A stretch of 59,736 bases of DNA, the filler included, from Basidiobolus ranarum (lineage: Eukaryota), in the NCBI GenBank assembly GCA_040143965.1. It is 6 parts of 6 records of this genome, joined end to end, with 100 filler letters (N's around TTAATTAATTAA, not from the genome) between each part and the next. Parts side by side here need not be neighbours in the genome. Positions count along the whole stretch, not along the records: positions 9,985 to 19,865 come from JASJQH010007644.1; 5 more parts are not named here. One strand, written 5' to 3'. Positions 2,403 through 39,918 of this stretch are shown piece after piece (the stretch's first letter is position 1; each line of letters opens with the position of its first letter). The notes below the pieces were generated by a model. That model was given only the letters and a program-made list of their open reading frames with translations. It searched no databases and was not told the origin of the DNA. The position numbers were made by a program, and so were the translations under genes.

Positions 2403-2996
2403 TCTTATGTATTTCATATCAATAAAGATTCCTGCCAAGATTTTCCTAATTATGATGGAGCTTTAACCGACAAACTCTTATATATGTCATGAAATTATAT
2501 GGCGTATATGTTGATTACCGGTCAGTTATTTGATGCTCCGTCGCTTAAAAACTATAATCAATGCAAATCTCCTGAAGCTGCCATATCATGTAATAATAAC
2601 CTATAACATCGGAATTTACATCAGATGGGTACGAGTATAGTCACAAGATAAATTGTCAACATCAATAAGCACTAAATATGTTTCTTCACGAGTGTACTTT
2701 AATAGCAGGATTAGGTGAGAAGTCAAATATCTGACAGGGATTTCATTCTCAAATAGCTTACTCTAATAAAAAGGGCTCAGAAGAAGTTGTATGGTTGATA
2801 CAAGTTCAGTCTTAAAGAGTTCACCAATAGCATGAATATACGTCAAGTTGCTGTCGAAAGTTCACTCTTAAATAGCTCACTCCAAGAACAGAACGATGGA
2901 AAGGGTTGTAAAGCTGACGAAGAGTAGTTGTACGGTTGGTATAGATTGGTTTGTATCTCTCAATCTCAGTACTGTGGTTAACAAAATTTGAGAAAC

Positions 2997-3749
2997 TTAT
3001 ATCACGGCCAATATTTTGTTCTCCAGGTCTAGCATACTGTAGATGGTACCTTTGGCGAGATCAGTCATACTATCGTAATCTTTGGTGACTGCATATTTGT
3101 AACTATGCAAGTTATGTATGTTGTCGGTTATTTTATACATCTTGTCTCTTACTACTGTGGCTGTATCGATTGTATCCTTTAGTTGAATCGACATTCTCCA
3201 CTGTTTAGATAGAACTCCGATGCCTAATACAGTAGTTCCAAGAAACGCTGAGCTTAACAGAAATGGATTGAAAATGGAGTAAGAGGGGAAGATCCTTTCG
3301 CGATATTTCAGTACAAACACGTAGGCGATACATAATGACCCTCTTTTAAGAAACCCGGCAAACAGTTCGTTTATGGACTTTTGATAATGGATTTTTATCC
3401 TGTTCAGGAAGCTACAACATACCCTAGTTAATTCAGCTGGTGTATCGTAATCCACTTGGTTAATATTTTCCAAGTTACTATTGGCCAATAACTTGTTAAA
3501 TACATGCTTTTCCTTGAGGATATACTGTAATATGTTGTTTATGACAACTCCGTATTCCTCCGTAACATCGTAATGCTCCTTCTTGACGTTCTCTATTATA
3601 GGCTCAGTAAGAGTGTTGATTTCAGGCAGAATGTATCTAAATATGCTCACACTGTTGACAACCACTTCAACACTGCTTAGAATTACATCCATGGTAAACG
3701 GAAAGTATTCCAAAAAAAGTTTGCCAGAAAAGAGGAATAATTGTCTCAT
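2997..3749 (-). CDS. Hypothetical protein (about 250 aa) with two hydrophobic segments; may have upstream exons
   Basis: A 753-bp uninterrupted ORF in AT-rich DNA with hydrophobic stretches SLCIAYVFVL and FLLSSAFLGTTVLGIGVL. No family recognised. Confidence 0.55.
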   Translation of the reverse strand: MRQLFLFSGKLFLEYFPFTMDVILSSVEVVVNSVSIFRYILPEINTLTEPIIENVKKEHYDVTEEYGVVINNILQYILKEKHVFNKLLANSNLENINQVDYDTPAELTRVCCSFLNRIKIHYQKSINELFAGFLKRGSLCIAYVFVLKYRERIFPSYSIFNPFLLSSAFLGTTVLGIGVLSKQWRMSIQLKDTIDTATVVRDKMYKITDNIHNLHSYKYAVTKDYDSMTDLAKGTIYSMLDLENKILAVI

Positions 3750-6212: not shown

Positions 6213-6517
6213 TGTTGAAATTAGCATTGCCTAAACACCTATATAGTCATATATGGCTTAGTACTTAGTTATCTTATATTTCACCAAGATATTACCCATT
6301 ATTCTCAATCAGAATTTATTTAGAAGTTCTTGGATATATAGATTTTCCAACGAAGCCCCAAACTTTGCACACATGTTCCTAGGACCTTCCTTAACATATT
6401 CTACACGTTAGTTTGTTTACATCTTGACAAAACTATAAATGTCAACTCAATAAGTGAAAACCACCAATTTCTCTAATTCTCCAAACCACTTCTAACAAGC
6501 TCCCAAATACTTTAACA
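6213..6517 (+). mobile_element. Solo LTR, family A, with 5-bp target-site duplication
   Basis: Starts TGTTGAAA and ends TTTAACA, flanked by ATATT on both sides (6208-6212 and 6518-6522). Related copies occur elsewhere in the window. Orientation is arbitrary. Confidence 0.8.
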
Positions 6518-8624: not shown

Positions 8625-9169
8625 AAATCTCGAGTAACTAAACAAATAAATAAATTTGTAGAACTACTCCTGTACGGGGATATTTACTTCTTTTTTGCCC
8701 CATTATAAGCCTCATTAATTTCCTATGTCATTGTGCTGTCACTCACAACATTACCTGGTGAAATCTTGCTAGCAAGACAAGATGGAGTATCTTGTTTGAT
8801 GGCAATAATTTACTTACAGCTTAACACACCAGATCAAGTTAATGACAAGATTCTAGTGAGTCCATTTCAGTAAGCTACTTATTACCTGGGAAAACAAGCG
8901 AGAAAATACTGATGATGCCTTTTTGCTTAGATAATCTCGGAAGTCAGCGGTTGCAGTAATACTAGCCCTCTCCTTAGTATCGCTATCGTAATCTTTCTAT
9001 TCGTCACACATTACACAGAACATACGGAATCCAAAATCACTGGTGCCATGAAACCCTGGATGAATTAGGGTTAGGCTTTATACTGCCATCGGTAGGATTT
9101 TCCTTTTAGAAATATCAGCATATTTCGAGTCACATTTGAAACAATGTTTGATGAAATAATTATATGCAA

Positions 9170-9610
9170 GTTAGGATGTTGGCTATAGTGTGGGAAACTC
9201 GCAATTCTGTGGATTAACATCGAGTAGATATTGGTACAAGGATTAGAATGTCTTTAAGATAAGTTTGGAAATATATATCATGAGCATAGAATAGATACAC
9301 CAATGTTTATATTCTAGCATGATAAAGATCCTAAGCACTGAGATGACAGAGAATCAATTAGTATCATAGAATATGATATTAGAAAGCTTTTATGGCCACC
9401 GCAATCTCCTGCTTTTATGGCAACCGCAATCTCCTGCTTTTAATCCTAATAAGCCATTGTGAAGTTATCTTAAATTAGGTGTGGATAGTAAATGATTCCG
9501 CCAAAGGATTTAATATACTTATTGGAAGTTATAACATACCCAGAGAATATTATTAGGCCTTGTTTAGTAGTATGCCCAGAAATTATGAAGTAGATATAAA
9601 GAAAGTTTGA
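9170..9610 (+). mobile_element. Tc1/mariner DDE transposase relic
   Basis: Reads IF*HDKDPKH (FQxDNDPKH) at 9309-9338, WPPQSPAFNP (WPxQSPDLNPIE) with a 25-bp tandem duplication at 9386-9435, and SMPR near 9570. Confidence 0.7.
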
Positions 9611-9884
9611 TTAGCCAGGGATGAGAATTGCCGCATAATTCAAGATTTGATTCCTTGCTATGCTTTATGTTTACGATCTGGGGTGCAAATGCACTAGATT
9701 CACAACCGTAGTATTACTCCGAACCCTTAGCTATTCTTCACTTAATATTTTGATATATTTTACTTGATCATGATACTGGATATTGAAGCAAATGTAAGAT
9801 CTAGTTGCTTATCTATTTGCTTGATCTTCTGATTCAAGACGTAGCAGATCTAGTTAAGGATATGACTTTGGTGTAGTTAAGGAT

Positions 9885-9984
9885 NNNNNNNNNNNNNNNN
9901 NNNNNNNNNNNNNNNNNNNNNNNNNNNNTTAATTAATTAANNNNNNNNNNNNNNNNNNNNNNNNNNNNNNNNNNNNNNNNNNNN
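9885..9984. other. Artificial contig-joining spacer 1
   Basis: 44 N + TTAATTAATTAA (stops in all six frames) + 44 N. Confidence 0.98.
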
Positions 9985-12900
9985 GATGGTGAGCCCTTTT
10001 GTGGGGAATTGGAATTTCATGGGAGATACGATGTTGCAAGAAGTTGTTGTACTAATCCCATATGGCTGAAGAGTATTTATACCTTTACTGCTTAAGGAGA
10101 TACCAACTAAAGATTTTGATCCAGCTTTGCAGATGGGAATATTTTTGTACATTGCCATGTGAACCGACATTTTTCTTTCTATATTCGGTCGACTCCACTG
10201 TCGTACAACTTTCTATTTTTTTATATTAAAGATGTAGCGTGCCAACTTAACTTTGGATGATTATATATTTCAAAAGTACACTGATTAATACAATTTAATA
10301 GTATCAGAAGAAAGTAAGGGATGAGAAAAGTCATATGTTGTTTGAGGAGCCAGTGTGGTTGTTTTCACTGCCTCATGTATCCGTGCCAATTAGTAAGGAT
10401 GCTTCACAGCCATCAAATCTTGCCTACCCTGCCAATGCAATACTACTAGCGGCCTTAGGGTTGAAGTTGTACAAACCTTGTTCCTGTATACTGACACTGA
10501 CTCATCATTACCCATCGGAATAATCCGGATTGGTAGGTTAATTCTTTGACACTGGCAAGAATGTGTGGTTGTCAATTGTCCTCAGATAATCATAGATGCA
10601 TGATGATCTATGATGGGAAGGAAGCCTTTAAACTCTTGATAAGCAAGGGTTTCTGCCAAGGTTGTGTTTTCGGATTCATTTGATTAGCAAATGTATGCAA
10701 AGTTGTACAGAATTTTTATTATGGATGACTTGACTAATTTATTCCATCTCCCATCGATAATCACCATTGAGTTCTAAATTACGATGACCCAACTGGATGT
10801 ATCTTGGATAGAAGAGTCAAATTGCATGCTTCAGGTGTATTCAGTTCAATTGCTCATATGATAATTGTACTCGCTGAATGATGGATGGTCAATTATTTAC
10901 TTTGATCCAATTTCCTGGGTAATTCATCTTTTGGTTGGCACGCAATAATTAATCAAAATGCATGGTGCGAGTGGATGCACTTGGTTTATCGAATGGAAGG
11001 ATGAATCTAACCTTCTTCACTATAAGCTTTACTTTGCAAGTAGAGCATACATCTTTAGGTTGAAATCCTAAGTTTAAAATCAGATAGAAATAAAGTGACA
11101 CTCTAGATAGCAGATGGCGACTTGAACTGGCTCAGTAACTATTGAGGAGGAACAAGCTTTTCAACGTATCTTCGTTAAGACGACTTGATTAAGAATGAGT
11201 ATAATTTCAATTCTTGAATGAGTGACTATAAGATAGATTTACCTGTCCCATCCACGACCCTTTCTTGCCGAAAGACGTTGAGCATACCAGGCAGGAAAGT
11301 ACAAAGAGAAACTAATCAATGTTGGGACTTGTACAGTCTTGGAATCGGTTCAAAATTACGAAATTAATATAGTGCCCTCAGATGTTAGAGTGAAGAAACT
11401 TACGGATATTTGAGCGATCACTTGTTGAGCCTGTGTGTACTTGGGATACATTCTTCAGGCTTGATATTATTTGTTGGAGTTGCTACTTTAGATGAGGAGG
11501 TCGTACACTGGCGATTCCTTGTCTGATGGTGCTTTAAATACCATATACAAGCGTAACAAGAGCCTTTCATTCATTCAATCCCACTGGCTACTTGAAAGGT
11601 ATCTTTGGGCAATCCAATGGTCAACTAGGGCGATCCAAAGTAAATGAGGTGGCCACTAGAAAGATCTGGTGAAGATGACAGATGTCGAACGACCACATCA
11701 TTGGATTGAACATCATCCCAGTGACTGCTAAATATTTTTTTTTATCGTAATATCGATAAATCGCTAGACGTCCCGACCTTAATGCACGCCCAAATTAACC
11801 AGATATTATTCTGGATTAATCTATGCAAAAGCGCATCATCATATCTGGTTTTTGATTTAAGAATTTGCCATCCGGATACCAAATTTATGCCAGTTTCTAG
11901 CCAGCTGCGATTACGCTGTACTTGGTTACTAAAAATCCTATTCTCAAATAAGTGTAAATGCAAGTAAACAGAGGGAATGTTGCAATGGATCACAGACTAA
12001 GTCTCGCCCAACGCTTGAGGCCTTCGAATACCGAGTGAGTAAGGAGAACTCGGCTATTCCGCGCTTCCTTCACAGGCATCATGATACATACTAATAGTGA
12101 CGTTGAAATTCTGTACCTGTTGCGACATTATCTGGTTTTCAATCCTCGAATCATCCAAGCTACTCCATTATTTTCCTTTCCCCCTCACCCTGTGACCTAT
12201 GGATCGGTTGACTCGCTGTGGTAAATGAATATTTTGTCACAGGAAACATTTTTAGTAGATCCATCTTCTATGATGACCTAAAGCGACGAACTGTATTCTA
12301 AAGAATGTCAACTATGGTAAAATCTTCATCCGATAAAGATGATTAATTAAATGCGACATCGTGACTTGAGGCAAAAGTAACGTTAAACCAAAACCGGTTA
12401 TTTAGTATTTTCTGACAGTTCCTGGCAAATACATTTTGAAAACCAGCTGCTATTTACCCGGAATTCAGGTAATCTAAGGAGCGGAGAACTTCAGTGAAGT
12501 CATTCACACATACAGACGAGTAGATGAGGGTTTCATTGATAATCTAGCCAAAAATGACGAGACATGCAACAGAGAATTGATTTTCTTCTCGAGAAATCAC
12601 TTGATGTGTCCATTATGAGAGTCTAGTGATATAATATTTATACTAGCGCGATGCAACATTCGTAAACATCTAAAGCACCACAACTGAATAAGAAAGACCA
12701 CTTTGCTCCTACCGGAATTTGGAACCTTCTACACTATAACAGACTACAAAGTGCTTTGATTCTCTCACATGATTCACTACTTCCTGGAAAAGCACACCAG
12801 AGTATTCCACTTTAACAATGCAGCCATTTAAAGTAGATACTGGACCACAAATCGCTTGGACACCTTGGACTCATTTATTGAGATGATCCTTGTGGAAAGA

Positions 12901-14265
12901 TAATCTACATCTACTCTCTTAATGGTGAGTAAGTAATACTTCTCGAATTAGAGAGTGAACCAAAAAGGGAATTGAGACAAGGGAAAATTGTACAAACGTA
13001 TCTGAAATATTTGGAAAGACACCTTCCAAGGTTTACTTTGGTCTAATACATCGTATTATCTTGAATCTGAGCAAGATGAACTGGAGGAAAATCTAGTCAA
13101 TATCTCAAGATTATCCAGCGGTTTTCACCAAATAATCGCCATGCTAGAGTGGGTTTATAGTGACCTCGTGGATACTGATCGAGTATACAGATTCCATTGT
13201 TAAAGTCTAAAATGAAAGGTTGACGAAGAATAATGAAAGATATCGGTGACGATGTGAGCACCTATTGTATCTACTCTCATGATAACGGAAATTTACATGA
13301 ACTTCGGGGTTATGCATATACCACGAGTCATAATAGCATTGATAGCATTACCAATCTACACTGATCGGGAGGTAACTGATAAGGTATATGTCAATAGTAA
13401 AAGATGGTCACTTGAAATACTACACAATACTGTATAATGGTACAAAGAGTGACTTTGAATCTATATTTCCTTCCCTAAACAATCTGAATTCACAGAAGCA
13501 ACGGAGGATTATTATTCAGACCTAGTAGTTTCTGCATGAAGACTACAACTCACAACTCATCTGCTATTGATGTGACTACGCACATCAGTGATCAGCCTGT
13601 GTGTATCAACTAGCAGTATTATACTAAAATGAGTTGGAAGGATATTATCTAATGAAATTCTCATCCAGGATGCTTCTCATTTACTAGAGCCCTATTTACA
13701 ATGACTGGCCCGTTTTACAGTCACATGGAGGTAGCAGTATATATAGCCTCATGGGAATGCTCATAAACCTATCTTATCCATGAGGATATTTATAGACTAT
13801 CTTAATTGCAATTAGGCTGTAAACAATAAACCTACATATAGCACCACCGAGAGTACTAGTACTTTGTAGAATTGGATTGATATCGGAATGCAGCATTTAG
13901 CTGAATTTGCGTATCAAATGATTTCCCACATGACGAGGCTATTAAGTCGACTGTGTAATATAGGAGAAAAAGCTAAATTTATTTTAACGGTCAACTGGTG
14001 ATTAGAGTGTCTATACATATTTAACTAATCCGTAAAATAACTGGATAAGAATGATACTAGAAGAAACTTCTGTTGGTAGAAAATAAGAGTTAATATCAAA
14101 TTAATACGGTCGCATTTGAAAGTCTTCAAATGTAAATGTTATACGAGGAAAATAAAGAAACGAAGTAGTTTTACAAAAATGTGCAAAGTAATTCAACAAT
14201 TTCACTCATCGTGGTAGGTTAGTTCTCAAACATAAAATCGGGGTTACGGTGTGAATTGAGTTAGA

Positions 14266-14487
14266 TTATAGACACACATAGTCACCAGGAGAAAGTGAGA
14301 GGATCATAGAGGACTGTGGCCCACTTCCCGTAGCTTCTTTAGATTTAGGCATGGCGGGTGGAAGCATGTGTGAAGTATTTGTGTTAAGGATCGCTAAACC
14401 GCTAGCACCTAAAGTTAATCCCACAAAGGCTATTGAAGGAAAGGGCATACTTTTCGATAGAGAGGAGCGAAGTGGAACTGCAAACAT
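14266..14487 (-). CDS. Possible small protein (73 aa) with an Arg/Ser-rich N-terminus and one hydrophobic helix
   Basis: ATG in aaccATG context. MFAVPLRSSLSKS is presequence-like and is followed by IAFVGLTLGASGLAIL. No homology recognised. Confidence 0.3.
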   Translation of the reverse strand: MFAVPLRSSLSKSMPFPSIAFVGLTLGASGLAILNTNTSHMLPPAMPKSKEATGSGPQSSMILSLSPGDYVCL

Positions 14488-15149
14488 GGTTAAGATGTAA
14501 TAAGGGAACTAACAGTTTGACGACCTTTCAGATGTTCGTGTAACTTTTACTTGTAAGGTAAACGATACAACACTTAGATATGAGTACCGTGAGGGGACAG
14601 ATTGATGATATTTGTCAAGTTACAACCTCAACTTAAATACCTTTTCTAAACATCGTATAATACGTAGCTTAGGATTGGATCCATCCCCTTGATCACTCAC
14701 AAATAGCGGTCTTCAGCTTGAAAAAGATCCGGAGTCCTTCATTCTGGCCTAGTTTTCCTAGTTTGAGAAGCTGCCTCCAACTACATGCGATTGGGATATT
14801 ATTGATGGATCCTATTGGATTCGGGGCATGATCGTGATTCCAGGTGCCCATATTAATCTTACACATTGTATAGACTCGCATTGTATATATGCAGATCACT
14901 ACCGATAGTCATCGTAAGCTTTGGCATACATGAATGTCTGGCAAGTTCTCCTCTTCGGCCATCAGTTGCAAAGGATAGTCAGCAATGTCCAGCAGCCAAT
15001 CACATCTGGGATTGCATACAAATTGAGCCAGCAAGTATTTCATTAGCTGAAGACTAAGCTAAATTCGCAATGCATAGACCAAATTGATTTCATCCGTTCG
15101 CTCAGCTACCTTTCAGATCCACCCAAACAAAGCAACCCAATAGCTGAGC

Positions 15150-16020
15150 TCTACCCCAAACCATTCTGTGAGCGATTTCCTAATCTGGACTAAGACTGCA
15201 CGATTAATTCTGTGAGACACTGTGTTAATAATGTGCAAACAACGCCGACTCAATATATGCGTTGGGACAGTAGACATATTGAACCACACCCCAGTGTTAA
15301 AGCTAGCTCTAGTTTAAGCTTCCCACTGTTTCCACCGTTTCTAGCTCTGCAACCTGTATTCATTCTTGCCATTTCGCTGGATCCGCCAAGGCTATAGTTC
15401 GCATCATGGGAGTCCCACATTTTGCGCAAGCTAAGTCAGACCAATGGATGGACGAGCCTTGATTCAGCAGCTCAACAATCCCAGGATCATCCTGATTCGA
15501 TGAAATCGGAGATTAGTCACCAGGCAGGAAAGGATTGCGTCGATCTCAATCAGCCCAGCACAGATTCTGCCCATTTGTTGCATGAAGCTACTATTTTGTT
15601 ACAACTCGGATCGCAGCAACATTTGCTGCTCACGAGGTTGTTCTTCCATTGATTGAGAAAGTTTGCCCTAAATTTCAAGATTCCGAAGTCTCGATCCTGG
15701 TTTCTGTTTGCTCTGTACACGGCCGTCCTAGCTGCTTAAGTCTATCAAGCCGCTGCTATCATCAAGCTCTCGATCAAGATTTCCTCGTTTAAAGTGTAGC
15801 TCTATGGTTTCTTTCGGCTGTTCCCTATCTCTTCGACAGTTATCTGGGTATTATGCACAGCTTTCCCTATCATTGCCCCTTGAGTATGAAGTAAATCGTA
15901 TGCTACTGTGAGATTGCGCCTGTAACCAGCATGTGCTAGGTCCGTAGAGATAGGTTTATCCAAGGGGTTGGAGATACGGAAGCACCCTGAATCATTGTTC
16001 GTCTATCTGGACACCAATAA
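15150..16020 (+). mobile_element. Possible very decayed non-LTR (LINE) reverse transcriptase relic
   Basis: Weak motifs appear in the expected order across frames: LRKLSQTN (RPISLxN-like), QAGKDCVD, ILLQL, FLFALY and FVYL. There are many stops and frameshifts. Confidence 0.3.
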
Positions 16021-16168
16021 TGTATACCAATCAATTCTAGATATTCGAAACGTCCCTATCTAATGCGACAAAGGAGCCATTCGTGTGACCATATCACAAC
16101 TTTTGAAAATTTGATATATTTTGCTGAGCTATTGAGATTGAGTGATCACCTTTACACGAAGCTAAAAC

Positions 16169-16516
16169 ATGCCATTTCTGTTCACTGCCACTCCACCTCT
16201 TAGACCAAGTGGGAAAGTAATAATCCTCGACTCAACCATCCAAACAAAGTTAGAGTTACTCCGTTTGTTTGCAAAAGAGCTAGATTTTCCCGAGTACTTC
16301 GGTTATAACTGGGATAGTCTTTATGACTCACTTAGAGATGAGGTTAGCTCACTTAAAGGTGAGCTTTTCATATTCCATAGGTCCTTGGTGTCGCTAACAA
16401 CTACCGAGCAGAAAACTTATCTAAAAATTCTTCAGGATATACTTGACTTTGACTCTCGAGTGACCATCTGGTTCAACCAGTGTGATAGAGACAGTGTCCT
16501 CAGCTATCTCAAGTAG
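16169..16516 (+). CDS. Barstar-family (ribonuclease inhibitor) protein, intronless
   Basis: A 115-aa ORF with the barstar signature LLRLFAKELDFPEYFGYNWDSLYDSLRD and typical barstar length. An AATAAA lies at about 16567. Confidence 0.88.
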   Translation: MPFLFTATPPLRPSGKVIILDSTIQTKLELLRLFAKELDFPEYFGYNWDSLYDSLRDEVSSLKGELFIFHRSLVSLTTTEQKTYLKILQDILDFDSRVTIWFNQCDRDSVLSYLK

Positions 16517-19500
16517 CTCATTTGGACCTGAAGTTTTGCTCCTTTACTGTGAAAAGACCTTATGTTAATAAATATTTAATACTTGAGTATATCGCTTGAC
16601 CAAGGAGCAGATCTATCGAAGTCTTTTCATATGAACAGTAGACAGGGTTGGGATCATAATTGCTTATACTTATCACGGTACAAAATAGCTCGATTTATTC
16701 CGCTGCATATATACGATAAAGGATTTCAACGATAGTTACTATTCCTATCGAATAAAGGAATAGAGTTAAGGTTTAGGTCAACGAATTGTAGTTGAGATAT
16801 TCGAATATGATACTGTAAATATCAAGATCCATGGTCAACCTAAGATGCTGAAATCATATCCCCAACATTATTCTTGCAGACTAGACTGGATGTAGGACAT
16901 AATCTATTTGATAGCTGTGGCATGATTAGAGATGCATACAATAACTGCTACTTATGTTTACTACAAATGCTCTGGTTTTAGTGGTAACAGTTTGATTATC
17001 AGCAACGACCCTGATAACCAAAGCAACTCTCCTACTGTTTCGAAATTCGGAGGACTTACATGCAATTGATGAAATCAAATCGCTTACACGTAGCAGTTAG
17101 CCAGTGACTGGAAAGAAAGTTTAGTCTCTACTGGTGTCACTATGAAGTATAAAAAGGAAGTGGGTTCTTGACAGGTAAAATTTCGATGATAGATTTTGGC
17201 AAGTCATGTCGCAACACATGTTCAATATTGGGGCTCCATTCAGTCGTTTCTCATTACTATGTAGTAAGGATCATCTATATGTAGGATAGTATACAGTGAA
17301 GTCATTGTGCGCCGAATTGGATACTGGATTGCGGAAAATTTAAATTGATATTCATTGTTGGTCTATAAATCCCATAGTAAATCAAATTAAATTCTCAGCC
17401 AACTCACACTATGATACCTGATCAAACTGATTGTGGGCCAGGTTTGATTAGTATAACTTCTCATTGTTGCTAACTAGGAGGAAGATCCTCTAAGTATTGA
17501 AAGTCACGCTAAGTGGAAATCCTTATTTCAATCCTCACTCTCATCGTGCGAGAAAGGGGTTATTTGAAAGGTTTTTGACAGTTCTATTACGGGGTTCATT
17601 TTTATTTCACGATGTGCAGTAGATGCGTGAGGTATTGAATATGCCGATTGAACTATAGATATTTGTTTACATGTAAGATGATAGTTATTGGTGGCTTAGC
17701 GATATATTAACATATCTGGTCACATCCAAGGTTGAAATTTCATTAACTGTAAAACTGAGTTTGAAGGTCATAAAGATCCAAAGTGAAACCTCCTTTTCAT
17801 TGTTCTGGAACGGTTATTACATGTGGCGCGTATAACACTGTAAACACACCTATTCATGTGTACATAGCTATAACGATATACTGCTAGCGTAGCGGTTCCC
17901 ATGTTTTGTAAGTGCTTACAGAATACAATCGCCCAGATATCAGGAACCTATGTGAAACCAAGGACAACAACTAGCTTTTTCCAGTAATTGCAATGTGCCG
18001 TGAGAGGGTTAGTTACTAAGTTAGTATTGTTTTCAGAACAGGGATCATACAACTATCAGATCCTCAAGAAGAACATACTCGTCGTGTCCAATTAAACCAT
18101 TGTTCTCACTTGATCGGTAAAATATCTTGAGACAACTCTCAGAATAAGGAAATCGCATTTTTTGAGTGGTAGCTTGGATTGAGGTGAAGTGTTGACATCA
18201 GTTAGCAAATGGTTGAAAGAAATGATCCAACAATCGAATTTCGTAGATAAGTATACTCTTCCCACTAAATGGGTACTTTAGTTAAAATGTGCTCTTGGTT
18301 TAGTTAATCAGTAGCATATCTCACGTTTAGATGGATGTAAATGGTGGTGAAGCCTTACATATCAGATCCAGAGAATACAAAGCTGTCCATGTTTAAATGG
18401 TAGTTGCTTCATCATGTAAGCCCCAGAGATTTGTTCACTTATTTTCTAACTTGAAGCCATAGACTCAATACTTGGTAGTGAATCGGGGAGAGCACTAATA
18501 CTCTGAATGTAAGAGACAGTGAGCTCATTCAGCAGTAGTTGGGTACTCAAAGCTATTAATCACTTTTCCTAATCCAAGCATCAACCATAATTGCTACATT
18601 TTCATTAGAAATCATGGTATATTATTTGATTGTTTTTGCCTACGGGTGCATCTATCCATACAAATGAGAGATATGATCCACATAGGGTATCGTTCATTAT
18701 TTGTTCTCTTGTCATCATAGGTTTAAGGTATTGCTACTTATGACATTGAAAATAAGGAGTAAAATTCTTACTGCAATGATATGTGGTCACTGTAAATCAT
18801 GATTAGGTTTGCTGAAGGCTAAGGTGTAATCTAAAACTTATCATTTCATCCATCTTAGGTTTGAATCTCTCCTTCAATATTAGAATCTCTACTGCCCATT
18901 ACAATGTGATCATCTACACATAGTGCTACTATGCTCATAGGAACACTGGCATTCCTGTTGAAGAAGTATTCTTATTGTGAAAAATGAGCATCAGGTTGTG
19001 GGGTATTGGTTGGACGGAAATCTTGTACAGTTGTGATATGTTTGGCACATCTCAAATATATCTTAAAATACGTTAGTACGGAATAGCCGCATCGTACTTT
19101 CGATCTATTGTGCTACAGTTCTGTGTACATTTCATGGACTTAGACATGTGGCTCAACCTATCACTGTACCAAGTTTCTCACCTGATCAATTTCAACTTGG
19201 ACTGATATAAATATAATGACTTAAGGCAAGGACTAATAGCCCATAGCTTACTACTAGTTTGATACCTCATCCAAAGTAGCTGTACAGTGTGCAGGGCTTA
19301 CAATACTAGATAGTATGTTTTTGCATGAATATATTTCATCACGATTTGGCATCAACTACCATGAAAGGTCTTTGCGTAACTTTTGGTAGTTCAACTCATT
19401 TGATAGTGTTAAGCTTATCCATATTACAACATATATAGACTGGTAATCTTGGTTATGGTAAGACAGACAATTCAGACAATAGTGAAATTTCAAAAACCAA

Positions 19501-19865
19501 GAACTCCGTGTAAAATAATTTCTGAACTTGGGTAGGAATTCACCTCTATCATAGCAATTGATTTTGTGTTCCATTTACTCATCCAGCATACCCGGGCAAA
19601 TGAATTCAATGGTGTTGAAGTTTATTGTCTTTATCATATTTATTATCTCTATCTTTATACACCTAACTATTTCATATATCATATATAAGTTAGTTAACAT
19701 TACTTAGTCAAATATCACCTAGCTGAAAATTGGAACATATATTATATATATATGAGAATAATGTGAGAATTAGCAATTCCATATTGGAAATTTCAAGGTC
19801 ATTCAAATTGCCCCAAAGATAGCTCATTTTACTCCCACAGATGTTCTTAACACAACCCCAGTGTT

Positions 19866-19965
19866 NNNNNNNNNNNNNNNNNNNNNNNNNNNNNNNNNNN
19901 NNNNNNNNNTTAATTAATTAANNNNNNNNNNNNNNNNNNNNNNNNNNNNNNNNNNNNNNNNNNNN
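19866..19965. other. Artificial contig-joining spacer 2
   Basis: Same 100-nt N/TTAATTAATTAA/N linker. Confidence 0.98.
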
Positions 19966-20449
19966 CTGATTTTGCTTCTTTTTTAGTGTTTCAGATTGAT
20001 TTTGGGTATTATTCAATCAGCTAAATATAGTTTTAATGGTGTTAAGTTAAGAAATGGTTGTTTCCTGATTTGTACATGCTGGATATTACTTGAATCAAGG
20101 TACTACAATTTTGGGCATTTCTTAGAGGCTACCAATCATGCTGCAACACACTTTTTTCCTTTTTCACTGCTTACTTGACTGGAATTCTTTGTTCTCAACG
20201 ATTTGATTACATCTTTCTTTTTAATCATTGATATAAATTGCTTAAATTTCTTAGCAAATCCAAATCACATATGTTATTTAAGCAACACCATTATATTAGG
20301 CTGCAGGCCCATTGATTTCCTCATCTCGAAACAGGTTTGATAAACATTGTGAAAGAATGAATCTAACACTTTTTTGCGGAAGGCCTTTAAATACCTTATT
20401 CAAGTTTTATACCTTGGATTCTTAGTCTGATGCTGTAATTAATCTCCTA

Positions 20450-21985
20450 GGTTTCTTCAGTGAGGCTCTAATTGATTCTTTGACTCTGTTGGCTTAGGCT
20501 TGGTCTCATATTCTATAAATACTATTGAATAATCCAAATTTCCATACATCAAGAGCATTTTCTTCTAATGTAAACATTAAAGCTAGACTCTGAGCCATAT
20601 GGTGCCATCAGTTATACCAGAGCATTGTGGTTGATTCATATAGGCCTATGTGCCTTAGTCATAATAACTAAGTTGGTTAACTGAAGTTAAAGTATTGCTC
20701 ACAGTTATCAATCAAGTAGTGACACAATGTAAATTAACCTTGAACCATTCTCTGATTTAATCTACTTTAAAATATAAGCTTTGATAACAATGTAAATGAT
20801 GATACATTGCTCAATTCTGATTAAGCCTAAGCCAAGTAAGTTGGTGTTCTTAAGTAAAATTGAGTACAATACCAATAGTCTGGCATGCCCACTTTATCTA
20901 TGCATATGTCACTATTTTTGGAATATATGCAGGGCTTGAAGAAGGAGCTGATTTCCTGCAAAGAGTAGCATAGTTTGAATATGATGGATACATAGAGAGA
21001 AGTGGCCACAGGGCACCAAAGAGTTTTTCTTTCATTTACTATTCCAATCTTTACCAAAGATGGTAATATTCTATTTTTTTTCCACACTACATTGTGACAA
21101 CTATCAATGTTGGGGAGGCAGATTAATCTCCAATTCAATTTGTTAGGAGTATTAATTGCTATAGTTTTGAAAATGAATTGGTTGTAACAGATCTGGGAGT
21201 GATACCATATTCTATATATGAATCTATTTGTGAAAAAATGACAATTACAGGAGTTATGGTATTCTTGAAGTAGAGTGATCCTAACTAACAATTTTTTGTT
21301 ACCTTACTCTGTATTTGTAAGAGTGATCTGGTGCTCTGAGCAGTTTTCTCTTGTACTGTATTGAATTAACTTGGTTGGAACTTTTAGAGATATGAGCTAA
21401 CAATGAATGTAGGTTATTAACTGAGGAAATACAATTATTTTCACTTGTTATATTTCTAAATTAAATATGTTATATCTAGATAAGATGTGAGAAAGAATGG
21501 TAACTGTTACAATCCAGCTTCATTAAAGAATTCCAGCATCTCTGCAGATTAAGTGCTTATCAGGAGTTTGATCTTTTAAACCTTTCTGTCATAATCTAAT
21601 GACCAATATGAGTTGGCTTGTATCTTTTGGACATATTCAATATGAATCTATCTTTGTCTTTAGATGATTTAAACTCTGCCAGTAAACTGTCACATTGCTT
21701 CATAATGCTACTAAATAAGAAGTTCTTAGAGTTTATGCTTTAACATGAGCTTGAATGCTTTAGATGCTATCAACACTATTGTCAGGCCAAAAGTGTCAAG
21801 ATAGGAATCAGAAACATATCAAATTGAAAGCTCTTGTTTGGTTGTGTTGAATAAACCTATCTGCTTTTGTATCCAAACTATCATGGATTGTACAGTTTAA
21901 CCATACAAGCTGTTGTATCGTGACTTTGGATGTATCACCTGGCAAACTCTTATTGAATAAAGGACTGTTGCCACTTTATCATTTA
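20450..21985 (-). mobile_element. Crypton-like (tyrosine recombinase/Ndc10-II domain) transposon relic
   Basis: Ordered fragments across frames read MVSLPDLL, PTLIVVTM*CGK, LWCPVATSLY and AYM...MAPYG. They resemble Crypton/Ndc10 motifs ELPDL, ALVxxMxNGKT, CPVGALAFY and AYL..LP...MAGF. The region is CpG-depleted with many stops. Confidence 0.4.
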
Positions 21986-22096
21986 TAGCAAACTCTCTTT
22001 GACTGAAGAAAGGATGAGTAGGATAGCTAGTTCTGGTTAATTTATAAGTTATCATTAGAAGTTGGTCACATCACTAGGCATGTCATGGTCCATGTT

Positions 22097-22489
22097 TGTT
22101 GACTAAATTATGTATATTCCACATCTTGATTAACTTTAGTTAGGATAAAGCTATCAGAGACAGAGAATAATGTATCTATGGCCCCTATATCTTAGTTGTG
22201 AATAAGTCTATATCAATCATCCATATGTTATATTACTCACACATACTTATTTTATCTTATTTCAGAAATACTTCCCTAACTGAAATTTGTGGATTGTTAT
22301 TGCAACAAACCTGTCACCATTTAATCCAATTTGAATTGACTATATACATACTGCCATAAAATCAATAACTACTGATTGTACTGTTTCATCTTTACTCTTA
22401 GCAACCCTTAAAATTACAATTCAAGTCATTGAATGCATATATAGACAAAAATACTATCATAGAGAAAATTGGAAATTTAAGATGCAACA
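22097..22489 (+). mobile_element. Solo LTR, family B
   Basis: TGTTGA...TGCAACA with flanks ATGTT/TTGTT (4 of 5 match). Internal gtatctatggcccctatat and aatactatcata match the reverse complement of 39563-39818. Confidence 0.55.
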
Positions 22490-24449
22490 TTGTTTAATTT
22501 TAATCACAAAGCTAAACATAGACCACTGAACATGGCCTCTACCCAACATCATTTCCTCAAAGGCTATGTTTCTCTTTGATATAGTCAAGAGATGGATTGT
22601 TTATGGTTAGGTTGCAGCTATCGATGATACAGAGTCATCAGAACTGTTAGAGTTCTACCAATATTATGTCCAGGTTCAATAATGACCAGAATGACATCAA
22701 TTATATTCTCTACTCCTACAATCCTTTTGTGGCAAAATCATGAAGTTCTTGTATGGAGCCATTGTTATTGATAGGGCAGTGACTGTTGTTACTGCTTTCA
22801 GTTTAGATTCAACCATGTTTGTCATTGCATAGTCTTCCCTAGTCATTAATTCACATTGCAACATTATGTTTTGATTGAGTGAAGTGGTCTGCTTACTTTT
22901 TTTTGGTTTTTGTGCTGCACCTTTGTTACTTTCTTGATACTAGCTCAGAATTTTTGATTAGTTCATTACATTTCTCCCCTTCTTTCATTGTAGAGGTGAG
23001 ATATTTATTTAAAGAGTAATAATCCTATGGAATAGTTGGGTTAAAATAAAATTAACCTAATATGTAAATCAATCCCAATGTCACATCTACTCAAGTAGAA
23101 GACAATTTATTTTAGAAAATACTGAACCAGAACCAATAGTAGATAGTTTTATCTCTTGATTAGAGCATCAAAAACAGGTGTTTATCTTGGTGCAAACAAC
23201 TCAAAAAGGTATAATTCTTTGATGGGATACCTCTGGTGCTCAGTGATCACCTCTGAGAGTTAGTTACATTCATTTACAGCTTGATGGGTGATAAAGTTCA
23301 TCAGTGTTATTAGGCTAAGCCACATTAGAGTTAATTATTCATGTTAGTCTGAAATATCATGTTTGTTTAGACTGATAGTGACATTATTATCACATTTGAT
23401 AAACAGAGTTAAATCACATGCATTATGGAGCTTCAACATAGCATAAGCACTTTTGTTTGCTTAACATCGAGATAGAGTGGGACAACAATGTTTCTGTTCC
23501 AAGTCAAAAATTTTGAGCTAAGCTAGATCAGATACGTTGGGTTTTGTAAGGTGAACATTCATTAGATACTTTGGATGGCTAACTAACCCAATGACTTTAA
23601 TACTGGTAGTGATGTATTTTTACTTGAGTACAGGCAAAGGACAAGTTACTTTTGCATTTTGACCTGACTAGAGATACCATTCAAAGTTACAGTTTTAATC
23701 TAATCAAATGAGTAGCCAATAATGTGTCAAGTTACATCAGAGCACAAAATAACCAAATTGTACTGTTAATTTTGCACTTTTATCACTTCTACCCATTTGC
23801 AAATATCCATACATAGCCAAGACCAGTTCAACTCTGAAGGGAATGAATAGGGATTGTTACATTGCTATTAATAGACTCTGGTTCTTGATGTCACTATCTC
23901 ATATATATTCACCTGACCTTGTTGTTACCCTCAATGTTTAAATGCTGCAACATTCTGATTTAATGGCCTCTATATTGATGACACTGTAGCTGCAGTCATT
24001 ATGGCCAAACAACTATAACTTGGTGTGATGTCATAGCAATTTCTGACTAAAGCAATTTCTAACTAATTCTGATAAAGTTTGTTTATTCCAAAAAATATAA
24101 CATGGATGCAATGCATGTCTAGAGATCAGGATGCACATCATAAATGCAAAAGGAATCATAGTGTGATGAAATTAGTGTTTATAACACAATAGCTACCAAT
24201 GTTGCATTAACTTGAAATTTTACTCTATTTCTCACTTTTTTAGTAAGTGAGACAATCAAGAACAATACAAACAAGTCTGTGTCTATGTTTGGTGTAGGGC
24301 GCAAGTTATCTTTGTCATGAGTGATGAGCTTACTGATCTGCCTAAATGCATATTCAGAATTGCATTGAGTGAGAGAAGTCCAACAGCATTCCTGAAAGTA
24401 AAAGATTTTTTGATAAGTAATATCCAATGGAGCTGGCTATATAGGGACA

Positions 24450-27408
24450 GAGATACAATGTAAATTACTGCAGAAACCTGATGATTCAAATAAGATTAAC
24501 ATTCATTGATAAGATTTTATCCCTAACAAAAATACAATTGAATTGATCCAGATTGGATCCACCCTCCAAAATAGCAAAACTGTCAGAGAACCATGTTTGA
24601 ATATTGATCCTCAAATTTGGCATGCTTTATTCATTATCCAGCAATTTTTGCAAAAATATAATTTTTGACTGGTAAATTACTGGGTTTACTGCTCTAGGAA
24701 TTTGATTTAATACGCATGCCTTGATTTAGATATTTTAGGCTTTGAATTCCAGCCATAATGAGAATCAAAATATACAAGAATCTTATTGTGTTTAGTCTCT
24801 ACATATGCACATACTTGACTGATTAGACATAACTCCACAGCATTAATATGCTTTACCAGCAAACTAATGGTGGAGAAAAGCTAAACATCTGAGTTTTTGA
24901 ATAGCACTGACACTTGGCAAATAGCTGACTCTTGTTATCATTCACAATAAGAATAAGCTCTTGGATTTTGGCAAATTTCCATGATGAATTCAGCCAATAT
25001 ATCCCCAACTTGCAGTCAACTAATGTCCTGACACAAGTAGATGTGTCATTGCTTGAATAGATTACCCCATGGCTAAGACAATAATTCTCCATAACTCCAT
25101 CTATCTCACCAAAAAGTCTGTCTTGCAGCTTTCCTAAAAATCAGTCAGATTATCACACAAGCAAATTAGTCCAATTATAGAGGTACTTACTTTATGTCCA
25201 TCAATGGGGCTTTGTTGCTGTTATTGTGCTCAAAGAATGCAAAAACCCATTAGCACATTGAAAAGAGCCCTTTGTTGGCAGGTTAATTTGCTCTGGAGTC
25301 TCCTTAACCCATTGCATCATATCCATCACTGATTTTGCTGATACACTGTAAATCAGATTACCATGCAGTAATATCGACAATTTCACACAGAGCTTCATTG
25401 CACTGCAGAGGTGCTCCATGAGGAACTCCCAGAATGTATAGCAAGGGCCTATAATCTCTAAGCATTGTGAAAGATGCAGCAGGGAATGTATTGAATACTA
25501 GCATAGATTTACTCTATCTTTAAACTTTTAATAAAGAATTTCATATCCAATTACAAAATCTTTGCACAATTGCTGTATCTGCCTGAGATCTGCCAATGTG
25601 AGTTGATGCCATATGAATATATTAACAATATTGACAAACAACTCCCAATGTTGCCATTACTCATCAGGCAGAAATCTTTCAAAATTCCACTTGAATATAC
25701 AAATCCAATACCTCCTGTCTTTGCATTTGTATAAGGACCTAGATGAGTGGATATTGATGGAAGTCCTGGTAAAATATGATGGCTACTTGATATTTTCAAG
25801 CATTTTCCCACTCAATTCAAGCTTTGATCCTATCTCAAATGGCTCATTCATGTAGAATTTTCCACCATAGAGTGGAGCACGTAGTATTGGAATGTTGTTG
25901 AATAGTAAGTGCATAGTGCCTGATGGGAACCTCTGGCTCCAGCTGATTCCTTTTAGCTATATAATCTCAGGCTTATGGTTAATACCAAGTTTGATGTTAG
26001 ACCAACTATTTGGTGAATTGATAGCAGTTATCATAGTGAAATCTGACCAGGCTCTTGATGGTAAAATCATGAAGTTTAGTGTAGTATTTGGACAGTAGTA
26101 ATGCATATGCCTGTTAGAGTAAACTCCATTGATTTGACAAAATCTACAGCAAGATAGTGCATTGTGCTCACAAAAACCTCCAACTTTACTGATGGCAGGA
26201 GTGCCACCAATACATACAATGATATTAGCTTTAATAAAATATTCACCCATCTGAACCCCATTAGATAACCATTCAAATGCCACAATCAAAGGCTCCAAGG
26301 AGCCATCTATAAGCACAGATGATTTAGGTCCAGATATGATGGATAGTATCAAGATATTATGACTCTTATACCATTTAAAAGGAGGAGGATTTAAGTTGAT
26401 TAAGATTATTGGCAAGCAAGCCTTTCCAATGGTATATTTGTTTAGTGAGAAACCATCCAGAGCCAATGCAAATGCTTGATTATACATGTTCTCAAAGAAA
26501 CCTTGACTTTTCAGACTCTGGTAGTGTAATCCATCAAGTATATTGGTAATACCATCAGCTTTAGAGTGAGTACTTTGGTACTGGATCAATCATCTATATT
26601 TGGGTGATTTCATCAAAACTTTAACACAGGGAATCAATGGTATATAAGCCAAACATGAGTGATATTTACCTGATTCAGTGATTGCCAATTGTGTGCAAAC
26701 AGTACATGACTTCAAATTTCTCAGATCACCAGTTAAAGCCAAACATCCATTTGGACATGAAGGTAGCTTAATTACTGAAGGATTATAATTCATACAATTG
26801 ACAAGTGTTTTCCACTTGTACCAGGTCTGCAGCAAGCAACAGCTGCCACTCAAATATGGTAAAAGTGTAAGAAAACCAATAAAAACCTGGTTGCTAAGAT
26901 TGAATTGAACTCTCCACTCCTCAATAATCAAAGCTGCTTGCTTTACAGTAAGTGTTATGAGTGGACTAATGTTTGCCAATAACAAAGAGTCTATAACAAA
27001 ACCATTGTCTTCTTCTTCAACTTCAGATATACAACCATTGGTACTGGAATAACCAAGGTCAACAACTAGCAGCAAGTCCACAAAGTTGTCTGGACTTCTT
27101 GGTTTGATCAAAGTTGCATTTTGACCTACATCAGTCTGGTCATATAACTTTGGTAACTCCACAGTATCTTGACTTTGGGCAGTGTTTCCAAAACTTTGCG
27201 GCAAACTACAGTCAGTAGACTCAATGGTCAAAGCTAAAGTCAATTTAGTGCACTTATTGCTGTTGTTATACACCAGGCTTTGAGCAGCTGATGGCTTTGT
27301 ACAGTGACTATGCTGGTGATTAATGTTTCTGTGAGACCTCTGGCTTTCATAGCAGAAGAATTTGTGACAATAACAGTGGGGCTGCTTACAACATTTGTGT
27401 TGTGGCAT
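24450..27408 (-). mobile_element. CACTA/En-Spm (Tnp2-family) transposase pseudogene
   Basis: Motifs include SCPNGC..CTVC..YIPL, ILDGLHYQSLKSQGFF..AFALALDGF, PIILINLNPPP..NILILSIISGPK, GGTPAISKVGGFCEHNALSCCRFC and GPCYTFWEFLMEHLC. Scattered stops are present, including one at 26590-26592. Confidence 0.82.
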
Positions 27409-28444
27409 GAAAAGGATATTGTAGGAAAAAGAACACCTCCTATGTAAAGGTGGTATTTTAGATATAGCCCATCAATATCATCAGCTGATTCTGAGATGGT
27501 GTTACAAATGAGTCATCAGGGTATTTACAAGATATTCCTGGTAATGGATGGCAATTTTGGTTTATTATAAGCTGTTTCCAAGCAATCTCTTTACACCTAG
27601 TTTACCATCTGAAATTTCAATGCCATTCAAAAACATTCAAAATCTAAATCAAAATTGGCTTCCAAGCCCAAGCCTGCTGGCACAAAAGGAAAAAAACCAG
27701 CAAGAACAGAGGACTTCATTGATGAGTAGTCTAGCAATCCACTATCCACTTTGGAAGGCATTAACATGCTGGGAACTAACTCAAGTAATGATGAAGCATC
27801 AACCAATTTACCAGATATGTTCCTTTCCAGCAATAGTGCAAGTGAAGAGATTGTAATCCCCCAATTACATAGCAAATCAATAGATGAGGAAACCTCAACC
27901 AAAAACCATCAAACCATCAACTTTCAAAATGGCTACTTTTATCACTATTGAACAACCCTCCATAGAAAATTTGGATGGAATTATTACAACAAGGGAATTG
28001 CAGGCATAACACCATAATGATTTTATGCAATCATATGTAAAAACTACAAAGTTGCTATTAAGGCCATGACAAGCAATAATGCCACAATATTGCAATTGAT
28101 GCTGCATATGGAAGCTACTAGTCAACAGTTAGAGAGTCACTCAACAATGATACAAGACCTTCATAATGCTGTACTTGAGCTACAGCAACATGCCACTCCC
28201 TCCATCCATTCTCATACAGGATTGCAATCAGTCCCACACCATGAATATGAATGTTACCGTGACAATCTAACAGAGCAGAATATGTGTTGGAACATTAAGC
28301 CTACACAACAACCTAAAATTGCTTGGGCACATGAAAGTAGCAATCTCATAGAAAAACTGGTAAATCAAAAGACTCTGAATGTCAGAGCTGCTGTCATTTG
28401 CTCTGATGATGAGTGGTTTTAAATTTTGCAAACTGTGTGGAATC

Positions 28445-28727
28445 TGTTGAAATTATTTAGGGAGAAATATTGGGCTGGCCAGGATTTGAACCTGGGACCT
28501 CTTTCACTCTAGCAAGGTGCTCTAACCACTGAGCTACCAGTCCTTGTATGCTTTGCCTATATTGCTAGGGAACCTTAACCTAGTCTGTCAATTCATGGTA
28601 CTTTGGCATTTCCACTTTACAAGCAACTGATTGGCATTTCCACTTTGTGTTCAGATGTAGTCACCATACTCCACATTTTCCTCTTTGGGAATTACTGCTT
28701 GTATCACAAGTCACCAGACTTTCAACA
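28445..28727. mobile_element. 283-bp solo-LTR-like element containing a tRNA-like sequence
   Basis: Perfect 8-bp inverted ends TGTTGAAA...TTTCAACA, with a 5-bp TSD GAATC at 28440-28444 and 28728-28732. Confidence 0.85.
28471..28543 (-). tRNA. tRNA-like sequence or tRNA pseudogene (73 nt; nominal anticodon AGA but short variable loop)
   Basis: GGACTGG TA GCTC AGTGGTTA GAGC A CCTTG CTAGAGT GAAAG AGGTC CCAGG TTCAAAT CCTGG CCAGCCC A. The D and T arms and A/B boxes are intact; the acceptor stem has 1 mismatch and the anticodon stem has 2. Confidence 0.7.
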
Positions 28728-29843
28728 GAATCTTGCCCAAAAGCACCTGGATTTGAGCCAATTGTGGAAAAACCAAAAACCAGATATTACTCTGAAGATT
28801 CTTGATTTATTTCATGTGGCTTATCCTGTGTTTTTGCAAGCAAATGGCAATTGGGCAAGTATAGGCCTATTTATGAAACATCTCAAAAATCTATGCAATC
28901 ATTGACTTGGAAAAGAAAGAAAAGCAGCTAACAAAATACTCAAGGAGCAGGAAGTTAGTAAACTCAAGGGAAAAGCTAAGGAGTCAGTGAGTTTAGGATC
29001 AACTATCTCACTTACCAAATTCTTCACACCATTACAAAGATCTGCATTTCTAGAGTCAGATATACAGACAAAAAAACTCAATATTGCCATGGAAGCAGGT
29101 ACACCTGTTGGAAGAGTGCTAAATTTGGAAGTTTATCCAACACCTGGCACCTCTCAACAAGCCAAACACCAGCAAATATAACTCATGGCTCTCCAGCCTC
29201 AACCGGTACTCTTCAAAGTGTTGAAATTAGCCCCAAAGTTAAAGGCAAGCAAAAAGCCACATAAACACCACAAAGCACCCTTGGTAGTGTCACACTACAA
29301 GGATGTACAAAAATAGCCAAAGTGTTTGGGAGTATTTTCAAAAGTATGGAGGGAAAACTCAGTGCAAGTATGCAGAAAGTGGCTTCAGAAGAAGAACATT
29401 CAACTTGACATTTGGTCTGGTGTTGACTGTGCACATATTGGGGAAGAACTTAATACAGAGTGGCACAATATTGCAGGGTATCTGCCAGATAGATGTAAGA
29501 ATGTTGATTCAGCAATGTTAATACAATGGTGTGCTTTGATGGAGATATTGATACAAACTTGTGTTGGGTAAGAGCTAAACCTTGGGTATTAAGTACTCTA
29601 TAAAAATATACAGGATAATTTATCATAGAGACTAGGGATTTTTTAGGTGACAAATCAGCATTGAAGTGGTAATTGTTTAACATTTGAGTTATGTTTTTTG
29701 TACATGTGTTGATCCATAGTTTTCTGAGATTGTAGCCAATCATTTGCAACTATTTTGCAAGATCTTGAAATTTCACTCCTGAAACTGAAAAAATTGATTA
29801 AAATCAAATCTAACTTGACAATTTTATGATGGTAAGTAAACAG

Positions 29844-29943
29844 NNNNNNNNNNNNNNNNNNNNNNNNNNNNNNNNNNNNNNNNNNNNTTAATTAATTAAN
29901 NNNNNNNNNNNNNNNNNNNNNNNNNNNNNNNNNNNNNNNNNNN
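29844..29943. other. Artificial contig-joining spacer 3
   Basis: Same linker. It truncates the NRPS that runs into it. Confidence 0.98.
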
Positions 29944-39562: not shown

Positions 39563-39818
39563 TGTTGGAGGATCTTGACATAATGGGGGTAGACTTTGAG
39601 TATCAGAAGCAACTTATGATAGTGTGTTTTAGTTATGTTATTCTTAAGAGTATATGGTGACTTATATAGTAGAAAAGTAAATCAATTGTTTGAGATATTC
39701 AGGAGTCTGTGTAATAAGATATAATAGATAAGTGGGGGTAATAAGACATACTTCTTATATAGATATAGAGATATTCCTATTTAGAATATAGGGGCTATAG
39801 ATACGTTGCTTTCTGTTT
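39563..39818 (-). mobile_element. LTR, family B (partial, runs into the contig end)
   Basis: Ends ...GATCCTCCAACA on the minus strand. 39563-39715 is a near-identical reverse complement of 49885-50037. Confidence 0.7.
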
Positions 39819-39918
39819 NNNNNNNNNNNNNNNNNNNNNNNNNNNNNNNNNNNNNNNNNNNNTTAATTAATTAANNNNNNNNNNNNNNNNNNNNNNNNNN
39901 NNNNNNNNNNNNNNNNNN
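39819..39918. other. Artificial contig-joining spacer 4
   Basis: Same linker. Confidence 0.98.

Follow-up and report, generated by a model that had tools for sequence, protein, structure and literature searches.

The stretch of Basidiobolus ranarum DNA analysed here (the window; 59,736 nt from assembly GCA_040143965.1) contains, on the plus strand at positions 16169..16516, an open reading frame (ORF) of the barstar family that runs from ATG to TAG without an intron and encodes 115 amino acids. The repeat search exposed the window as six separate contigs placed end to end, the longest first (9884, 9881, 9878, 9875, 9866 and 9852 nt), and separated by five artificial linkers of 100 nt, each composed of 44 N, TTAATTAATTAA and another 44 N. 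These linkers occupy positions 9885..9984 (between contigs 1 and 2), 19866..19965 (between contigs 2 and 3), 29844-29943, 39819-39918 and 49785-49884. The barstar ORF is located on contig 2 (9985..19865; 9881 nt; hereafter, the barstar contig), where no other gene was recognisable. ORFs that span linkers, for example, 29896-34914, and any gene neighbourhood that extends across a linker are artefacts. Because the six contigs are unlinked, no physical link joins the fungal genes of the window to the barstar ORF.

Family assignment and predicted fold

The protein encoded by the ORF matched the Pfam family Barstar (PF01337) with an E-value of 1.4e-14 and a score of 54.2 bits, against the curated cut-off of 23.4 bits. 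The match covers residues 22-93 of the protein and positions 9-78 of the 96-position profile, and its score falls inside the range observed for five single-domain bacterial relatives (48.2-65.8 bits). No family in NCBIfam was assigned to this protein. Among the 15 PDB chains listed by phmmer, 14 were variants of the Bacillus barstar (best E-value, 0.0034), with residues 16-60 of the ORF aligned to residues 3-47 of barstar without gaps.

The AlphaFold2 model, for which an alignment of 44 sequences was the input, has a mean pLDDT of 94.5 and a pTM of 0.87, and adopts the alpha/beta fold of barstar, with a parallel sheet packed by helices. The best 25 rows of a Foldseek comparison of this model with PDB (ranks 1-25) were all barstar chains (TM-score by target, 0.68-0.79; E-values down to 3.4e-05), and the structure search of the ESM Atlas yielded a TM-score of 0.87 to a bacterial barstar cluster. 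By profile match and predicted structure, the ORF at 16169-16516 is a genuine barstar-family (Imm-Barstar) gene.

Bacterial homologues are covered from end to end without interruption, which indicates that the ORF is intact and intronless. The sequence-only reading of this locus, which had described an intact, intronless barstar-family gene and proposed a Pfam scan as a check, is borne out on both counts. The length of the ORF carries no weight of its own: an open frame of at least 116 codons arose in 213 of 500 Markov-1 simulations of the barstar contig, so that the size alone is not above chance, and the significance of the ORF comes from the family and fold matches. By sequence inspection, the N-terminus does not have the appearance of a signal peptide. 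Downstream of the ORF, 51 nt past the stop codon, there is an AATAAA hexamer (16567..16572, plus strand), a possible polyadenylation signal, albeit a weak one in AT-rich DNA.

The predicted inhibitory helix and the subfamily signature

Residues 40-55 (FPEYFGYNWDSLYDSL; codons at 16286..16333 on the plus strand) comprise both the signature of a barstar subfamily and the predicted RNase-binding helix with its D49xxxD53 motif. In the ungapped phmmer alignment, Y43, D49 and D53 correspond to Y29, D35 and D39 of the Bacillus amyloliquefaciens barstar, the residues that dominate binding to the active site of the RNase. The acidic DxxxD motif is thus kept on the predicted RNase-binding helix, in the form D49-S-L-Y-D53. 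In the same alignment, W38 of barstar is matched by Y52, whereas T42 and W44, which have roles in the classical barstar, are replaced with R56 and E58, respectively.

Four residues, P41, F44, N47 and W48, are invariant among the 44 aligned sequences, and all four are kept in the ORF. The same holds for seven of the eight columns that are at least 90% conserved, a level of conservation reached by G45 and D49 among others; the one exception is A50, which is replaced with S. By these sequence features, the ORF belongs to a subfamily of barstars of about 120 amino acids signed FP-x-YFG-x-NWDAL. The DxxxD pattern is named as a motif of the Imm-Barstar family in the available text of Zhang et al. 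2012 (PMC3482391).

Bacterial ancestry of the barstar ORF

An exhaustive profile-free search retrieved 772 proteins at E-values of 0.001 or below, including 11 at 1e-10 or below; at 1e-30 or below, the query itself stood alone. The best relative other than the query had an E-value of 1.3e-14, and identity did not exceed 48% among the 150 matches listed. A profile search with an alignment of the family produced 345 matches; seven of the 120 matches listed are labelled with their source, in every case a bacterium (Flavobacterium, two Pseudomonas, an uncultured bacterium, Planktothrix, Cyanobacteriota and Pseudanabaena). The genome loci of relatives, nine in total, are likewise all bacterial. The only organism name among the best ten clusters is Draconibacterium, and the nearest clusters in the ESM Atlas belong to PF01337 and are labelled 'Bacteria 100%' where taxa are given. 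The relative in a Planctomycetota locus (L001) is 41% identical to the ORF over residues 13-89, and metagenome proteins reach up to 48%. Since every relative that can be traced to an organism is from a bacterium, the ancestry of the ORF, as judged from sequence comparison, is bacterial.

A word-based search of a collection of 5.8 billion protein clusters, which includes Basidiobolus meristosporus and dozens of early-diverging fungi, returned the query alone among four candidates, and from one contig, whose recorded length of 9881 nt agrees with that of contig 2. No fungal orthologue was found among the predicted proteomes. With no orthologue and a single contig, there is no sign of conservation of this gene in other Basidiobolus isolates or in a transcript assembly. 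A broad vertical distribution across fungi, which the sequence-only reading had named as evidence that would count against its own proposal, is therefore not what this collection contains.

In a maximum-likelihood tree of 116 rows, only 8 of the 112 inner branches were well supported, and none of these contains the row of the ORF. Nearest to the ORF in this tree are two proteins from metagenomes and the Draconibacterium cluster. The phylogeny that had been suggested for this gene provides no supported clade around it and points to neither a donor nor a direction of transfer. The end branch of the ORF (1.07) is near the median (0.93), that is, there is no pseudogene-like acceleration.

A plasmid or phage vector was considered as well and rejected: the plasmid collection yielded one weak match (Arthrobacter, 45% identity over 49 aa, E-value of 7e-4), no match to the protein was found among GenBank phages, and IMG/VR contributed one contig. 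This viral contig of 51.5 kb (L019) encodes, at 2941-3318, a protein of 125 aa that belongs to the subfamily of the ORF. This is an orphan barstar on a virus, with no same-strand ORF of at least 70 aa in the 575 nt upstream.

RNase partners of the bacterial relatives

In eight of the nine bacterial genome loci, an ORF encoding an RNase with a barnase/RNase Sa-like end domain is located directly upstream of the barstar relative. Four of these upstream ORFs were checked and matched the Ribonuclease family PF00545 with E-values from 4e-15 to 5e-24. The best local identity to the ORF (58% over 46 aa) was that of a relative on a metagenome contig (L010:2-1741), a 147-aa protein whose gene starts 10 nt after an RNase ORF. 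This upstream ORF contains a PT-HINT domain (E-value of 1.6e-24) and a C-terminal PF00545 Ribonuclease domain (E-value of 4.5e-15), along with an Rhs-like C-terminal core recognised by sequence inspection, a combination that identifies it as a polymorphic toxin. Judging from the domain content of these loci, the bacterial subfamily provides immunity to guanyl-specific RNases of the barnase/RNase Sa type (PF00545), secreted or Rhs-delivered, whose genes it directly follows. The earlier characterisation of barstars as bacterial immunity proteins encoded beside their toxins thus holds for the relatives of the ORF.

Orphan copies are found among the relatives as well. Apart from the viral copy on L019, the barstar relative in a locus of an uncultured bacterium (L002:1042-3354) lies behind a serpin (PF00079, E-value of 5.9e-61), with no RNase.

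Gene content of the barstar contig and the search for a partner

None of the 40 stop-to-stop ORFs of at least 55 aa analysed at positions 9000-24000 had a Pfam match above the cut-off, and their best matches were at the chance level (E-values of 0.012-0.09). When the entire barstar contig (9985-19865) was scanned against Pfam in six frames, with X at stops, Barstar was the sole family detected at an E-value of 0.1 or below, and there was one other row, with an E-value of 0.4. The longest other stop-to-stop ORF on this contig is 84 aa, and ORFs of at least 100 aa cover 4% of its length. No tRNA, Rfam family or tandem repeat was detected on the barstar contig. The surrounding DNA had been described as decayed; this is not apparent from our analysis, in which the flanks simply contain nothing recognisable.

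A tblastn search of the window with eight partner RNases gave a best E-value of 0.51 (29-50 near the ORF), and an RNase HMM built from eight domains, run against the 2609 stop-to-stop ORFs of at least 15 aa in the window, gave a best E-value of 4.5. A second copy of barstar was not found in the window in the HMM run either. The pairing of toxin and immunity genes is accordingly absent, with no RNase on the 9881-nt contig nor elsewhere in the window. The earlier statement that no RNase accompanies the barstar gene on its contig stands by Pfam, tblastn and HMM alike, with the amendment that the true contig is 9985-19865 rather than the 59.7-kb window. On the same tblastn and HMM results, we reject the idea that traces of an RNase gene transferred together with the ORF persist upstream of it. 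Capture by a transposon was dismissed too: the flanks show no notable repeats, inverted or direct, and the apparent repeats (D1 and I1-I3) are the artificial linkers.

Probable association of the barstar contig with the fungal genome

Contig 6 carries a marker of the host, a gene for adenylosuccinate synthetase (51149-52429) that shares 92% identity with its counterpart in Basidiobolus meristosporus CBS 931.73. On the barstar contig, the six-frame Pfam scan detected no fungal gene, and a physical link to fungal genes is therefore not apparent; nor does this contig share a repeat with any of the other five at E<1e-3.

The composition of the barstar contig was compared with that of the other contigs and of bacterial loci. 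The dinucleotide relative-abundance distance that separates the barstar contig from contig 4 is 0.029, and that from contig 6 is 0.032 (0.031-0.036 to the non-coding parts of these two contigs), compared with 0.033 between contigs 4 and 6 themselves and 0.17-0.33 between the barstar contig and four bacterial loci. Among the latter, a cyanobacterial locus with a GC content of 36.8%, about equal to that of the barstar contig, is at a distance of 0.173. Tetranucleotide correlations point in the same direction, with r of 0.77-0.79 between the barstar contig and contigs 1, 4 and 6, and 0.00-0.28 with the bacterial loci. The observed/expected ratio (o/e) of CpG is 0.64 on the barstar contig and 0.63 on contig 6, which carries the Basidiobolus marker, and a GC3 of 0.448 for the barstar ORF compares with 0.424 and 0.416 for two fungal genes.

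The scarcity of long ORFs indicates that the barstar contig is not ordinary bacterial DNA, and by this feature together with the di- and tetranucleotide profiles, the flanks of the gene and its composition are host-like. The barstar contig is thus probably of eukaryotic origin and from the same genome as the fungal contigs, its ties to the fungus being only those of composition and ORF scarcity. On the sequence evidence, the barstar ORF is a real gene of bacterial origin that is probably located in the fungal genome.

Other contigs of the window

A dispersed repeat family, with copies of about 100-340 nt that are 72-95% identical, is common to contigs 1, 4, 5 and 6. Copies were located at 6225-6517, 39563-39715, 49220-49318, 49885-50377 and 59070-59167; as an example, 39563-39715 and 49885-50037 are 94.8% identical. 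The copies often lie at contig ends, which probably explains the assembly breaks there.

The genes recognised on contigs other than that of barstar include a C2H2 zinc-finger ORF, a fragment of a mitochondrial carrier and two large intronless ORFs, bacterial in style, for non-ribosomal peptide synthetases (NRPS). One of the NRPS ORFs occupies 29944-34914 on the minus strand and is cut by the contig end (domain order A-T-C...). The other (41280-47852, plus strand; 2190 aa) begins with formyltransferase domains, continues with A-T-C-A, and is followed by a separate thioesterase ORF (47934-48860, plus strand). The contigs that carry the NRPS genes share the dispersed repeat with the Basidiobolus marker contig, which ties these genes to the fungal genome.

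Contig 3 (19966-29843) stands apart from the rest of the window. It contains 14 CpG in 9878 nt (o/e of 0.046, as opposed to 0.52-0.85 in the other five contigs), with an excess of TpG and CpA (1.40 and 1.41). Fragments of a tnp2-type transposase are present on its minus strand at 25957-27408, and a tRNA-Ser(AGA), on the same strand, at 28471-28543. This contig looks like a transposon-rich region that has undergone methylation-driven C-to-T decay, or else like DNA of other origin.

Comparison with known systems

The barstar of B. amyloliquefaciens (1BRS, 1BGS and 1A19; PF01337) has the fold of the predicted ORF model and the same inhibitory-helix motif, and both proteins are small, cytoplasmic and devoid of a signal peptide, which for the ORF is a prediction. 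The identity between the two is about 20-23%. The ORF differs from this barstar in its length, which is greater by about 25 residues and includes an additional strand at the N-terminus of the model; in the presence of R56 and E58 in place of T42 and W44; and in having no adjoining barnase gene and probably a fungus as its host.

The bacterial FPxYFGxNWDAL subfamily, represented by members from Planctomycetota (L001), Terriglobia (L003), and Planktothrix and other cyanobacteria (L004-L009), as well as by proteins of Draconibacterium, Pseudomonas and Flavobacterium, shares with the ORF its length, the residues P41, F44, N47 and W48, and the predicted architecture. In the nine genome loci, however, these genes adjoin a PF00545 RNase in all cases but one, whereas the ORF has neither partner nor neighbours.

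Among the polymorphic toxin systems, L010 demonstrates that the subfamily of the ORF serves a toxin of the Rhs-like/PT-HINT/RNase type. The occurrence of Imm-Barstar beside RNase toxins is described in the available part of Zhang et al. 2012 (PMC3482391), in agreement with the loci of the relatives. The eukaryotes listed there for Imm-Barstar are dictyostelids, Naegleria and chlorophytes, and fungi are absent from that list. As far as that list goes, the Imm-Barstar genes of these three groups are earlier transfers to eukaryotes; a barstar in a eukaryote is therefore not new in kind. In contrast to Imm-Barstar and orphan immunity systems, the ORF is a single copy and not a polyimmunity locus.

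Bacterial genes acquired by horizontal gene transfer (HGT) are a known component of Basidiobolus genomes. According to the available text of Tabima et al. 2020 (PMC7466969), candidates for bacterial HGT account for 2-5% of Basidiobolus genes, and 61% of them are intronless. As described in that text, these genes resemble the barstar ORF in the lack of introns, in host-like composition and in having bacterial nearest relatives; the candidates retained there, however, had fungal flanking genes and coverage like that of their scaffolds, neither of which is in evidence for the ORF here. The literature search, the scope of which did not extend to the HGT gene lists of PMC7466969, found no report of a barstar in Basidiobolus, and two of the three files that supplement PMC11291939 contain no entry for barstar, barnase, PF01337 or PF00545.

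Origin and possible role of the barstar gene

Our best reading, to which we give slightly more than an even chance, is that a bacterial antitoxin gene was gained by Basidiobolus and, as an orphan, protects it against RNases. An unsampled bacterium would have been the source of the gene, which would have passed horizontally into the nuclear genome of a Basidiobolus species while its toxin partner did not, and would now be an orphan immunity gene surrounded by gene-poor DNA. The protein, if it is expressed, should stay in the cytoplasm because its N-terminus does not resemble a signal peptide. There, barnase-type RNases that enter the cell would have their active site covered stoichiometrically by the acidic helix (D49 and D53, with Y43), in the way that barstar caps barnase, and the fungus would thereby be shielded against the RNase toxins of surrounding bacteria. 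What the analysis shows is the family, the fold, the conserved motif, the bacterial relatives with their RNase partners, the lack of such a partner on the barstar contig and the host-like composition; that the gene is integrated into the genome of the fungus, was transferred horizontally, is expressed, binds RNases and protects its host is what we infer. The horizontal gain by the fungus put forward in the sequence-only reading agrees with the bacterial relatives and with the fact that no fungal orthologue was found; the location in a fungal genome, on which it depends, is probable rather than established. Weighing against our reading are the lack, on the barstar contig, of fungal genes and of repeats in common with the other five, the absence of an orthologue from the 5.8-billion-cluster collection, a tree in which the ORF has no supported position, the replacement of T42 and W44, and an ORF length within the range of chance.

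Three other explanations have to be weighed. The ORF could be a bacterial fragment lying in gene-poor fungal DNA, neither expressed nor functional, whose frame is open only through its youth. Barstar is indeed the sole recognisable gene in 9.9 kb, the 5.8-billion-cluster collection contains no orthologue or second contig, and an open frame of 116 codons is not rare in DNA like that of the barstar contig, as the simulations show. Such a fragment would not, however, be expected to retain all four of the invariant and seven of the eight near-invariant residues of the family or a Pfam score typical of working bacterial members. Furthermore, no remnant of a co-transferred bacterial gene is present beside the ORF, and the composition of both the ORF and its contig equals that of the host, which together suggest a long residence, during which an unconstrained frame with a GC content of 38% should have gained stops. 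We accordingly view a functionless fragment as unlikely, although it is the strongest of the competing explanations. We consider it distinctly improbable that the 9.9-kb contig is not fungal at all, being either a chimera of the assembly or DNA of a second organism present in the sample, in which case no transfer would have taken place. The lack of a fungal gene and of a shared repeat on this contig would fit such an origin, as would the fact that the window is joined from contigs with no link to one another. A bacterial contig, however, would be densely coding, in contrast to the 4% observed in ORFs of at least 100 aa; the di- and tetranucleotide signatures fit contigs 4 and 6 as closely as those fit each other and are far from those of bacterial loci, including the one of equal GC; and the CpG ratio is practically that of the Basidiobolus marker contig.

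The remaining explanation, in our judgement the least probable, is that the protein is an antidote to an RNase of the PF00545 type encoded elsewhere in the fungus's own genome, either endogenous or co-acquired, and protects the cytoplasm as in Bacillus. This is the canonical role of barstar, the relatives are paired with RNases in nearly all of the genome loci, and fungi in general encode RNases of the N1/T1 family, which belong to the same Pfam family as PF00545. No such RNase was found in the 59-kb window, however, and the classical barstar reportedly does not inhibit the fungal RNase T1.

Implications for Basidiobolus biology

The preferred reading, an acquired orphan antitoxin, admits a more specific form that we put forward tentatively and regard as rather unlikely, namely, that this gut-dwelling fungus uses the captured, toxin-less immunity gene as a cytoplasmic shield against barnase-type RNase toxins of competing bacteria. 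The toxins would be secreted, or injected by Rhs/T6SS-type systems, in the guts of amphibians and reptiles. If true, such a shield would parallel, in another kingdom, the orphan immunity genes of bacteria.

As it stands, the barstar ORF adds a further probable bacterial gene to the many that this genus is known to have gained. If the gene is fungal and expressed, it would represent a eukaryote that uses a bacterial antitoxin as its defence against the RNase weapons of bacteria. Should this be the case, a defensive class would be added to the mostly metabolic bacterial genes of Basidiobolus, and toxin/immunity dynamics between kingdoms could be studied in a case that is both simple and testable.
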